Virus record (IMG/VR): IMGVR_UViG_2651869692_000004
Location: 1 to 46,543 of that record
Reading direction: 5' to 3' (one strand)
DNA length: 46,543 bases
Origin: a virus
Taxonomy: Duplodnaviria; Heunggongvirae; Uroviricota; Caudoviricetes
The position numbers are program-made. Positions within the stretch are counted from its first letter, which is position 1. Each line of letters begins with the position of its first letter. This document shows positions 12,001-15,000 of the stretch, in pieces.

Positions 12001-15000
12001 AAACATCCAATCAAATTTAATGGTTTGCTTTGTGCGGGGAACTATAACAATGTTTCTAGCTTGGTGCTGTATGAATTAGTGAATTAGTAGGGAATATATC
12101 CACACATTGATTAACACAAAAATATTTCAGATATTAAATGTAACTCAAAGGATGAGTAATAATGGTTGTGTAGCGTATAACAGGATGCTGAGGTAGTATT
12201 AAACAATGAATAAATCTGATTGACAAGCACCAGATAATACTGCGGATCAATCATTAGACATGAACGCCACTAGTTACTGAGAGTAACTAATGGCGTTTTG
12301 TTTATAGTTAAGATGTTTTTTTAAAACATCAGGGGGGCTCTACTTGTCTTTTTTAATATGTTCAATCTCATCATTAAGACATTTATCTATTTTTTTTATT
12401 AACACATTAATTTCTTCGGTGTTTTGGAGTTGAGTTGTCTTAGAAACAAAAACTCGAATAAAGAATTTAACATAGTGATAGGGTTGAAGTACATCGTTAT
12501 ACTTACATAAATCATTTATTGTATACTTGCCGCCTGTTTCTTTTTTTATTATTTTAGCTTGACTTGTATCGATATCTTTAAAGTTATCTTCAATCTGAAA
12601 ATCAAGAACCCATTCATCTCCTTTTAAATTATCCTCAATGATTTTGTTGATTTTCTTAGATATATTTTGTTTATATTCTTTGTATCTGTTGTCGGAAATG
12701 TTAACATTAGAAAACGTGTGTTTTTTTTCATATATTTTTTTCCAAACATTTCTATCAACAATATCTTGAATTATAGCTTGAGAATTTTTATCTAATGTGT
12801 TTTTAAGAGTGTTTTCTAAAAACGTTTTGTCTGGGTTTTCACGATAAAAGTGTTTGATGGACTCAATGAGAGTGTTTTTAGATTTTAAAGAGACAACATC
12901 ATCAGTTTTTTTTCTAGAACACGCTTTGTTAAGCATCGCAGATAGTGCACGATTGGTCTTATGAAAATAAACTTGACTATAAAGCCCACTTCTTGCATTG
13001 GCAAATTCTAGTATTGAATCCATACCACTTTCTTTATATGCCAGGTAAACACTATTTTCAACTTTCACAGGAATAAATGACATTAATAATCGTCCATAAT
13101 CATAAATCCCATATTTAACGCCGGAGAAGTAGCTATCTCTAAGTAGGTAGTCCATTCTGTCCGCATCTATAGGTGAAGATGATATGATTGAACCTAATAA
13201 AGGATATACATTTACTCCCTCAATGTTATTTTTAAAATCATATCTTTTATCAACAATTTTTATAATGCTTTCTGGATTAATAGCCGCTATGTTTTCTTTA
13301 TAGACATCGTCGTCATTTGATTTATCTTGGGCTTCATTTTTTAATTCTTCAATAATTTCTTTAATAAAAATACATGATACTTGTTCGTGGGTTAACTTGT
13401 CATTATCACTTAAAGATATAATCTTATCGTATTGTTTATTTCCTTCAGTTTTGCATTTTTCTTTGAAATCTTTTACGGATATTGCAAAACTATCGAATTG
13501 GTGGGCAAGTGGGCCATGCCCAACATCGTGTAACAATGCTGCAATACGTAACTCCTGTATAAGACTTGAAGGCATTTTTTTTATATCTAAATATAGATCA
13601 ATGCCCATATTTTTTCGGTCATAAATTAATGCATTCAAATTTATATTTTTCAAAATCTCATACGATAAATGCATTACACCGACAGAGTGTTCAAAGCGAG
13701 AGTGCATTGCAGAAGGAAATACTTTATATAGAAACGTGTTCTGCCTGATATCTCGTAGTCGTTGGAATAAAGGATGGTCAATTATCTTTTTTTCTAGCTT
13801 AGTTATTCGAATCACTCCATGTATGGGATCTAAAAACTTCCCCAGAAGTAAGTCTTCAAAGTTCTCAAGTTTGTTTTTGTTTGTCATGAGGCTTTCCTTT
13901 TGCTGTAGTTATAATACGAAATTTAAATAGTAATGATGTTTATAGTTTCAATGTGTTATCTAATGGTTAACACATTGTGATGTAGCATATCAATATGGAT
14001 TCATATGTTCAATTGGTCTGTGGAGTTTAATTATGAATAAGATTGATTCTGGTAATACTTTGTAGTTTAAGCTAGAGGCGGGATTCGTGATGTTCAAATC
14101 AGTATGTAATGGAGGTTGTGCATTAGTACTTGCTGCTGGAAATTAAAAATAAAGTTGCAAGTAATCGACGTTTTCCGAGAGGAGGATGTAAGCATCGCTG
14201 ACCAAAAAGTATCAACGATGCCTGTTTTGTTTTAACTACAAATTAATTAAATTGCATCTGCAAACTCTGTGATTTTTCGCTCAAGTATGATTGATGAGTT
14301 GCTGTTGTCGATTTTTTTATTTTCATGATTACGAATAGCCAATGACTCATTAAAGTCTTTTGCGACTGCTGTCTCAATAAATTCAATTTCTGAATCAGAG
14401 TGTTTTTTAACAGCTTCTTTGATCTCATCCAGAGTAACATAGAAAAACTCTTTTCTACGATTTACAAGATTGACTCTCTTTTTATCGAAGACATCATGTA
14501 GTTTTTTTTCTAATGATGGAGCGTCCTCCGAATAAATCATGGCATGCACATCAAAAATAAAAGGAACAGATGCATCACCAAGCTCATTTACACGGTCTTG
14601 TGGATCAAGACGTCGTGTCATGCCTATTTTATAAACATTCTCCCCAAAAGAACCTATGTTCGAAATAATATAAACATGACCTTGTTTGGTTTGTTGTGCC
14701 ATGGATAATGCTCTTTGATGCTTTGATTCAGCCTGCGACAAACTCTGTTCTAGTTCGGCAATGCGATTTTCGAGGCGCTGCTTCATGTCACCAGTAACTT
14801 TTTCCATTTCCTTTCTTGCAGCTTCAATTGCTTTTTTATAACGGCGCTCTTCTGCCTCTGCGTCTTGCATGGCCTTTTCTATTTCTCGTTGTGCACGCTC
14901 CTCCTCTCTCATTTGTGCCCTTATTTCTGCCTGTTCTTCTTTTTCTTTCTGTTTTTGCTCACGATATTCATGGGTAAGCCACAACTCCTCAAGTTTTTTA

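Follow-up and report, generated by a model that had tools for sequence, protein, structure and literature searches.

A predicted SAMHD1-like dNTP triphosphohydrolase as mobile, putatively anti-phage cargo of a lambdoid prophage

The depletion of deoxynucleoside triphosphates (dNTPs) by HD-domain dNTP triphosphohydrolases (dNTPases) is a proven anti-phage strategy of bacteria (Tal et al. 2022 preprint). Yu et al. 2021 divided the prokaryotic dNTPases into a SAMHD1-like group (COG1078/YdhJ), characterized by an additional C-lobe together with an allosteric site specific for guanine, and a Dgt-like group (COG0232) (PMC7854603). The chemistry of the SAMHD1-like family is known from EF1143 and SAMHD1 (PMC7854603), and human SAMHD1 has an established antiviral role based on dNTP depletion. 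The bacterial members EF1143 (PDB 2O6I/3IRH), A. aeolicus 2HEK, BT4208 of B. thetaiotaomicron (2Q14) and COG1078/YdhJ are chromosomally encoded, have been studied as enzymes, and have no known link to phages. According to Tal et al., direct alignment of their defensive dGTPases to SAMHD1 was not possible, and the homology was considered too limited to judge whether SAMHD1 descended from a bacterial dNTPase. According to a January 2026 review, bacterial SAMHD1-like defence proteins are still to be revealed. Here, we describe a gene for an HD-domain protein (HD gene, HD protein) from a lambdoid prophage contained in the virus record IMGVR_UViG_2651869692_000004, the whole 46,543-nucleotide stretch of which is referred to as the window.

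The best reading of the HD gene is that of an allosterically gated, dNTP-depleting anti-phage defence, to which we assign a probability of about 0.55 based on conserved residues and genomic placement. Neither the family of the enzyme nor its proposed way of defence is new; what would be new, and not surprising in principle, is the combination of the two.

Family, fold and conserved sites of the HD protein

The HD protein very probably belongs to the SAMHD1-like family. In a phmmer search of PDB sequences, it matched SAMHD1-type chains only. The best matches were A. aeolicus 2HEK (5e-30) and E. faecalis EF1143 (1e-26), and human SAMHD1 was matched at about 4e-26 over residues 19-430 with 22-24% identity. 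Further matches included mouse SAMHD1 (to residue 485), BT4208, and the fungal and nematode SAMHD1 proteins, while no Dgt-like PDB chain was matched even at E<=1. PDB 9MR6, considered as a bacterial defence protein, was ruled out, since it is a fungal SAMHD1. The AlphaFold2 model of the HD protein, calculated from a 52-sequence alignment, has a predicted local distance difference test score (pLDDT) of 87.7 and a predicted template modelling score (pTM) of 0.89. Foldseek aligned the model with SAMHD1 cores over all ~515 columns (E~1e-16). The protein is composed of two lobes, a catalytic N-lobe with an N-terminal β-hairpin and a C-lobe, and does not have the Dgt-type fold, which lacks both the C-lobe and SAMHD1-type β-hairpins.

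Profile searches identified a generic HD domain only (Pfam), together with a sub-threshold match to HD_assoc_2. The Dgt-type models failed their thresholds: TIGR01353, for which the curated cut-off is 152.35 bits, scored 23.4, and the PADLOC model 'dGTPase' (PDLC02374) matched just 95 residues (59-153; E=8.9e-4, 16.7 bits). An earlier note on this DNA had called the protein SAMHD1/dGTPase-like and suggested a check against HD and dGTPase profiles. The first half of this label agrees with the PDB and Foldseek matches to SAMHD1-like (COG1078) enzymes, and the HD domain was confirmed by the profiles; membership in the dGTPase family was not. The note had named a best match to an HD family of the HD-GYP type as a result that would speak against its proposal. 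Neither HD-GYP proteins nor cyclic-nucleotide phosphodiesterases are the best structural or sequence match of the HD protein, and the dNTPase motifs are conserved on alignment.

The core of human SAMHD1 (residues ~115-599) can be aligned directly with the HD protein, and the metal-binding and catalytic residues are common to both. However, the HD protein lacks the SAM domain and the C-terminal phospho-regulatory tail of human SAMHD1, and contains extra fast-evolving helical inserts at residues 135-228 and 325-424. With 515 aa, it is longer than EF1143, 2HEK and BT4208 (371-456 aa) because of its larger C-lobe. It also differs from these three proteins in that its clade is carried on a low-GC mobile cassette in prophages and defence hotspots, and has a clade-specific asparagine at the position of SAMHD1 L150. 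The HD-superfamily triphosphohydrolase active site of the HD protein is found as well in Sp-dGTPase and its relatives (Tal et al. 2022), in CloA of the Clover system, and in Vibrio Vdg. The Dgt-like anti-phage dGTPases resemble the HD gene in the proposed outcome, which is dNTP depletion blocking replication, and in their defence-gene surroundings. Nevertheless, the Dgt-like enzymes constitute a different family, without the C-lobe, with other allosteric sites, and assembled into hexamers or octamers. The HD gene does not belong to a Clover system either, as it has no adjacent CloB-type nucleotidyltransferase gene: from ren to ninB, the coding strand contains no open reading frame (ORF) of more than 65 aa besides the HD gene and its neighbour PD-lambda-1.

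Residues were mapped to SAMHD1 using a family-profile alignment and a pairwise alignment, and their conservation was counted over 52 aligned homologues. The three motifs pointed out in the earlier note are all present: RFEHSVGV, containing H67; HDVGHGPLAH, containing H120, D121, H124 and H129; and DADRMDYLLRD, containing D241, D243, D246, Y247, R250 and D251. These key residues are invariant in 52/52 homologues. The same applies to the metal-binding and catalytic set of H67, H120, D121, D243, H124, H129, H167 and R64, and to the equivalents of SAMHD1 H167, H206, D207, H210, H215, H233, D311, Y315, D319, R164, R366 and Y374. D132, the equivalent of SAMHD1 D218, is an aspartate in 49/52 and a glutamate in 3/52 sequences.

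Judged from the aligned residues, whose roles in SAMHD1 are given in PMC7854603, the HD protein has retained the greater part of the allosteric apparatus of SAMHD1. In allosteric site 1, Q42, R45 and R379 (SAMHD1 Q142, R145 and R451) are invariant (52/52). D37 (SAMHD1 D137) is an aspartate in the protein described here and in 34/52 homologues, and an asparagine in 14/52, so that one of the two occurs in 48/52. In allosteric site 2, R266, H309, K310 and K449 (SAMHD1 R333, H376, K377 and K523) are invariant (52/52), and D263 (D330; 46/52) and K285 (R352; 47/52) are largely kept. The departures in site 2 are L19 for N119, S287 for K354, and S291 for N358; residues of this site (A2) are less conserved in prokaryotes (Yu et al., PMC7854603). 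K383, equivalent to SAMHD1 K455, is variable, with lysine in 23/52 homologues.

The conserved allosteric pocket could also have a role in nucleic-acid binding. As proposed for SAMHD1, it would accommodate nucleic acid that is single-stranded or phosphorothioated (GpsN), and the target of the protein would be DNA or RNA instead of the nucleotide pool. The equivalents of SAMHD1 H376, D137, Q142, R145 and R451, which are conserved in the clade, were linked to the binding of GpsN oligonucleotides by Yu et al. (PMC7854603). However, the same residues bind GTP and dNTP, and no nuclease-type features were found in the HD protein. Furthermore, purifying selection on the complete set of catalytic residues is extreme, which argues that catalysis matters. 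We therefore consider the nucleic-acid-binding role very improbable.

The sequence following the motifs, which the earlier note took for a long extension at the C-terminus lacking any obvious motif, is a canonical C-lobe according to the profile alignment and the superposition on the SAMHD1 core. Residues ~325-485 of the HD protein align by profile with the human SAMHD1 C-lobe as far as residue ~561, and the alignment of the family profile with full-length human SAMHD1 spans residue 306 to 561. The C-lobe contains the family-invariant residues R379, W382, K384, E387, K437, D438, K449, Y455 and R478. R379 corresponds to SAMHD1 R451, which forms a phosphate contact in site 1, and K449 to SAMHD1 K523 of site 2. 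The terminal helix (residues ~490-514) is the only part of the HD protein without an aligned counterpart in SAMHD1.

At the putative sugar gate of the HD protein, Y307 (SAMHD1 Y374) is invariant, and the position of SAMHD1 L150 is occupied by an asparagine, N50, in 52/52 homologues. In SAMHD1, L150 packs against the substrate sugar and helps to exclude the ribose 2'-OH. A census of 67 wider-family members, obtained by a family-alignment scan of genome contigs, identified leucine at this position in 61/67 among the matches listed. The substrate specificity of the HD-gene clade may thus differ from that of canonical dNTPases.

The asparagine in place of L150 could adapt the HD protein to non-canonical nucleotides, as a phage-serving or counter-defence enzyme. 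Candidate substrates are the 3'-deoxy-3',4'-didehydro-nucleoside triphosphates (ddhNTPs) that viperins of the host produce as antiviral chain terminators, other immune nucleotides, modified phage dNTPs, and ribonucleoside triphosphates (rNTPs). Such an enzyme would protect the prophage's own replication or selectively starve modified-base phages. The gene is phage-borne, and SAMHD1 is able to hydrolyse nucleotide-analogue triphosphates. However, the remaining substrate-pocket and triphosphate-binding residues all match those of dNTPases, and the unusual substrate has no direct support. The orientation of the gene opposite to the lytic operon and its own promoter-like region fit expression in the lysogen better than in the lytic cycle, and many copies of the HD gene are located outside phages. 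Taken together, a phage-serving function appears improbable.

Location, mobility and evolution of the HD cassette

The HD gene is encoded on the minus strand, exactly at the position and with the length reported in the earlier note, and its placement in the nin island of a lambdoid prophage was likewise correct. The ORF extends over 1,548 nt from an ATG start to a stop codon, far above the chance expectation for DNA with 30% GC. Because of this length in AT-rich DNA and of homologues matched at E=0 to 1e-109, it is not a chance feature. The surrounding island of ~4 kb has ~30% GC, within a prophage of ~50% GC. One flank consists of O and P, which are replication genes, together with a ren-like ORF (11687..11983); the other consists of ninB/ybcN (16176..16631), followed by ninE, ybcO, rusA and Q. 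The gene order around the island was confirmed by comparison with an annotated E. coli locus that is 99.5% identical.

The HD cassette is delimited by comparison with prophages that carry PD-lambda-1 alone and are otherwise collinear. In blastn alignments of window positions 11600-16700 with phage PhiR26_1 (L002) and E. coli EC96 (L003), the similarity ends at 11969 and restarts at 14185-14188. The block missing from these prophages includes, in addition to the HD gene, a private upstream stretch of ~300 bp and, downstream of the gene, a strong hairpin (Table 1). With its predicted promoter-like region and hairpin, the HD gene is a self-contained cargo ('moron') cassette.

Table 1. Features of the HD cassette and the adjoining PD-lambda-1 gene. 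Coordinates are those of the window.
Feature	Coordinates	Strand	Description
HD gene, coding sequence	12340..13887	minus	Predicted SAMHD1-like (COG1078/EF1143-type) HD-domain dNTP triphosphohydrolase; 515 aa; N-lobe + C-lobe
HD cassette	11970..14184		~2.2 kb block missing from otherwise collinear prophages with PD-lambda-1 alone
Codon of residue N50	~13738..13740	minus	Asn at the equivalent of SAMHD1 L150
Promoter-like pair TTGAAC-17 nt-TATGCT	13984..14012	minus	In the private upstream region; hexamers and spacing conserved across genera
Perfect 10-bp inverted repeat CAATGTGTTA-N9-TAACACATTG	13949..13977	minus	At about the predicted transcript start, just after the promoter-like pair
Strong hairpin	12263..12297	minus	Located 43 nt downstream of the stop codon of the HD gene; resembles a terminator, no T-run on the minus strand
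Hairpin 3' of PD-lambda-1	14190..14223	minus	Within the block common to HD-less loci; separates two transcription units
PD-lambda-1 / SNIPE	14247..15749	minus	500 aa, intact; transmembrane segment + DUF4041 + T5orf172/GIY-YIG nuclease

A promoter-like pair of the form TTGAAT/C-17 nt-TATGCT precedes the homologues in five loci (Serratia, Enterobacter, Proteus, L096 and L103), and the upstream DNA of five homologous loci is 75-81% identical over 100-150 nt. A generic scan of the island for sigma-70 promoters and terminators gave sites not above those in shuffled sequence, and the promoter assignment therefore depends on the conservation across genera. The inverted repeat that follows the promoter-like pair has an RNA folding energy of -10.1 kcal/mol (z=-3.1). 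Its arms co-vary in Serratia, Enterobacter and other loci (ATATGTT...AACATAT), and it is possibly an operator or a hairpin of the 5' untranslated region. The hairpin downstream of the HD gene folds with -23.3 kcal/mol (z=-8.5), and the downstream DNA is conserved in part with that of homologous cassettes. The hairpin 3' of PD-lambda-1 (-19.4 kcal/mol, z=-5.0) is kept in loci without the HD gene. A search of the island against Rfam produced no match at E<=0.1.

The HD cassette is horizontally mobile and has been placed repeatedly in prophage or defence hotspots. Homologues with 64-77% identity, forming the close clade, occur in Proteus, Serratia, Enterobacter, Raoultella, Klebsiella sp., Yersinia and Dickeya. 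The gene keeps its ~30% GC in hosts in which the flanking DNA has 34-57% GC. The genomic contexts of the close clade were taken from contigs carrying exact homologue proteins, and ten distinct contexts were examined, one of which is the site next to PD-lambda-1 in E. coli. The V-S moron site of P2-like phages is occupied at three loci (Y. enterocolitica, Y. ruckeri and a viral contig), representing at least two different phages of this type. A Proteus island that disrupts icd combines the HD homologue with a complete cyclic-oligonucleotide-based anti-phage signalling system (CBASS; cyclase 3e-142, two-transmembrane effector 1e-88) and the candidate system PDC-M45. Other homologues are located beside an OLD/AriA/GajA-type ATPase gene and a NACHT gene, in a phage remnant with AbiGi, beside HigBA and Hcp-Tlde1, and beside a pyocin-immunity locus.

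In the Proteus mirabilis island (L087), a three-gene block encoding DuOB, DUF488 and mSLOG-DUF4326 proteins (4226..5933) lies next to CBASS and the HD gene, and two of its three proteins match PADLOC PDC-M45 (A, 4.6e-56; C, 6.5e-65). A small ORF of 151-182 aa, facing the HD gene convergently at four loci, was considered as a conserved partner and rejected: a relationship (34% identity) exists only between the ORFs from Enterobacter and Klebsiella sp., and the window encodes none of these ORFs.

Two E. coli alleles of the HD gene, that of the window and that of E. coli SCU-111 (L098, 3501..5048), share 89.9% nucleotide identity. The encoded proteins differ in 78 of 515 residues, clustered in segments 135-228 and 325-424. 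In the same two loci, the first 300 nt of the HD gene are near-identical, the spacer to PD-lambda-1 differs in 1/359 nt, and PD-lambda-1 is 99.3% identical. The core containing the catalytic residues and site 2 (residues 229-324) has a non-synonymous substitution rate (dN) of 0.004 and a synonymous rate (dS) of 0.50, corresponding to an omega of 0.01. In the surface blocks, where conservation within the family is lowest as well, omega is 0.34 (residues 135-228) and 0.60 (residues 325-424). The HD enzyme is clearly maintained by selection. The mosaic replacement of the gene interior and the fast surface blocks are suggestive of conflict genes, and the two hypervariable blocks could be the places where phage inhibitors or triggers make contact.

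Proposed anti-phage function

We propose that the HD gene encodes a stand-alone SAMHD1-family dNTPase, which is transcribed against the phage early-right (pR) operon and would be produced in the lysogen from its own promoter. The enzyme would be activated in the manner of SAMHD1 and EF1143, by a guanine nucleotide in site 1 and a dNTP in site 2. Both sites would be located at the subunit interfaces of a putative oligomer and be formed in part by the C-lobe. The active enzyme would split dNTPs to deoxynucleoside and triphosphate. A superinfecting lytic phage would raise the dNTP level and, since the enzyme is predicted to be dNTP-gated, the surge would turn it on; the pool would then collapse and the replication of phage DNA would stall. 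A comparable trigger is known from Clover, in which a phage-induced rise of dTTP activates CloA (PMC12265719). The lysogen and the prophage would be protected, and the dNTPase would constitute a replication-stage layer behind the injection-stage defence provided by PD-lambda-1 (SNIPE).

The HD protein could instead be a non-defensive regulator or sanitiser of the dNTP pool riding on mobile elements, either benefiting the lysogen through stationary-phase survival or mutation-rate control, or being neutral cargo. Such a role has been proposed for the housekeeping EF1143/Dgt-type enzymes. The SAMHD1-like family in the wider sense is old and broadly distributed, many of its copies are chromosomal and seemingly fixed, and the Klebsiella homologue is found at a constant site between an SDR oxidoreductase gene and a DJ-1/PfpI gene. 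Yu et al. call the members of the family auxiliary genes of as yet unexplained biology (PMC7854603), and the distant dGTPase homologues are not associated with defence (Tal et al. preprint). In contrast, the close clade is rare, present in 21 of 5,426 complete E. coli genomes, and its low-GC cassette hops between genera. It has landed recurrently in sites of defence cargo (P2 V-S, lambdoid ren-ninB, the CBASS island), and conflict genes typically show such fast surface blocks and such a mosaic replacement of alleles in a locus that is identical elsewhere. We therefore regard a pool-regulating function as unlikely.

Several observations weigh against the defence function. Two of the ten close-clade contexts (Serratia, P0017) are plain chromosomal sites with no defence or phage genes. 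Full-length homologues with 43% identity are encoded at a fixed chromosomal site of K. pneumoniae, in clusters of thousands of sequences and with no defence neighbours. The wider family is abundant in archaea, and the relatives with 27-39% identity are, among the matches listed, mostly from archaea or metagenome-assembled genomes. Because of the fixed Klebsiella copies and the abundance in archaea, the family as a whole is not dedicated to defence, and since the distant relatives are chromosomal and lack defence neighbours, the association with defence is at most a property of the close clade. Apart from the marginal match to the HD motif, the HD protein matches no defence or candidate model of PADLOC v2. 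Given the invariant asparagine at the sugar gate, the enzyme may act on something other than ordinary dNTPs. If the dNTPase is active in the lysogen, it should also impede replication of the prophage itself once this is induced. Furthermore, some E. coli copies (P0004 and similar clusters), a minority of the database copies, are frameshifted after residue ~388, in an A-rich stretch encoding ...YEKK... (window ~12720). They end at 420 aa and lose the K449 region, and represent either real decay or homopolymer sequencing errors. Finally, our literature search found no published anti-phage test of any SAMHD1-like/COG1078 bacterial protein.

A wrong start codon was ruled out as the cause of the shorter protein clusters: those of 420 aa are frameshifted, and those of 461 aa are partial copies at contig ends.

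The literature search returned no match for the RefSeq accessions of the HD protein. HD, SAMHD1 or dGTPase proteins are not named in the main texts of DefensePredictor, the domain-centric screen, the modularity-network preprint, the P2/P4 hotspot paper, or Vassallo et al. A dNTPase of the SAMHD1 family, as opposed to the Dgt family, was not found as single-gene prophage cargo in the literature covered, which excludes Brenes & Laub 2025 (Cell Host Microbe; PhiR phages). We tentatively suggest that the HD gene might be the first bacterial immune gene of human SAMHD1's own family, encoding a mobile, single-gene, allosterically self-triggered dNTPase traded among prophage hotspots. In a sharper version of this proposal, the clade-specific asparagine at the sugar gate would retune the enzyme toward non-canonical phage or immune nucleotides. 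If the proposal is true, antiviral nucleotide depletion of the SAMHD1 type, including the GTP/dNTP-gated C-lobe switch, would be ancestral and common to bacteria and animals. The ~2.2 kb cassette is native to E. coli, directly alignable to SAMHD1, and has its predicted allosteric machinery intact, which would make the question of SAMHD1 origin testable in the easiest host. Should the HD gene give no phenotype, it would be one more uncharacterised HD hydrolase moron.

The neighbouring PD-lambda-1 gene and other cargo of the prophage

PD-lambda-1, now named SNIPE, is a nuclease which is bound to the membrane and cuts phage DNA during injection (PMC13190303). The protein encoded next to the HD gene matches PADLOC PDLC03976 over its full length (E=5e-198) and the Pfam families DUF4041, T5orf172 and MUG113. 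The two genes have in common the ren-ninB prophage hotspot, the strand and the low-GC island, and both are single-gene cargo. However, SNIPE, a membrane-anchored protein with DUF4041 and a GIY-YIG nuclease domain, is unrelated to the HD protein.

The earlier note considered the HD gene to be paired with this neighbour. The two proteins could form a two-gene system, in which, for example, the nuclease generates or senses a signal and the dNTPase is the second effector. All 21 E. coli genomes with the HD gene have it adjoining PD-lambda-1 (21/21), in the same orientation and with a spacer of 359 bp; this co-occurrence is confined to one lambdoid lineage. However, a single cloned gene suffices for SNIPE defence (PMC13190303, PMC9519451), and PD-lambda-1 occurs alone between ren and ninB in phage PhiR26_1 and in strains such as EC96. 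Outside E. coli, no SNIPE-like gene was found near the HD homologues; SNIPE-like matches came from only 10 of the 118 loci compared, all of them E. coli. The two genes are separated by a hairpin and the private promoter-like region of the HD gene, and PD-lambda-1 is broken by IS1, split or frameshifted in several strains in which the HD gene is intact. The divergence of the HD alleles, set against the nearly identical spacer and SNIPE gene, also argues against a common history. The indel block, the loci with SNIPE alone and the different allele histories thus indicate the co-residence of two independent cassettes in one hotspot, that is, co-location instead of a system. The two-gene reading is already largely refuted, and we give it hardly any weight.

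Natural inactivation of PD-lambda-1 is frequent: the gene is interrupted by IS1 in NZ_AP038814, NZ_CP101915 and NZ_CP137705, and is split or frameshifted in L001 (NZ_CP195434) and in EC96. The prophage naturally combines SNIPE, which defends at the injection stage, with a putative defence at the replication stage, and the natural variants without the HD gene or with broken SNIPE provide controls.

Further from the island, a 317-aa ORF (7361..8314, minus strand) is located in a second dip of GC content (38.7%), together with a small ORF (7037..7345, minus strand). It lies immediately downstream of a CI-like S24 repressor gene (8376..9104), which is where rexAB is located in phage lambda. The 317-aa protein, which has no Pfam match and matches the PADLOC candidate system PDC-S42 over its full length (E=3.4e-86), probably represents a third defence cargo of the prophage. 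Three tRNA genes, for Met(CAT), Arg(TCG) and Arg(TCT), are encoded at 18340..18589 on the plus strand, downstream of the Q region, a placement common in Stx-type and other lambdoid phages.

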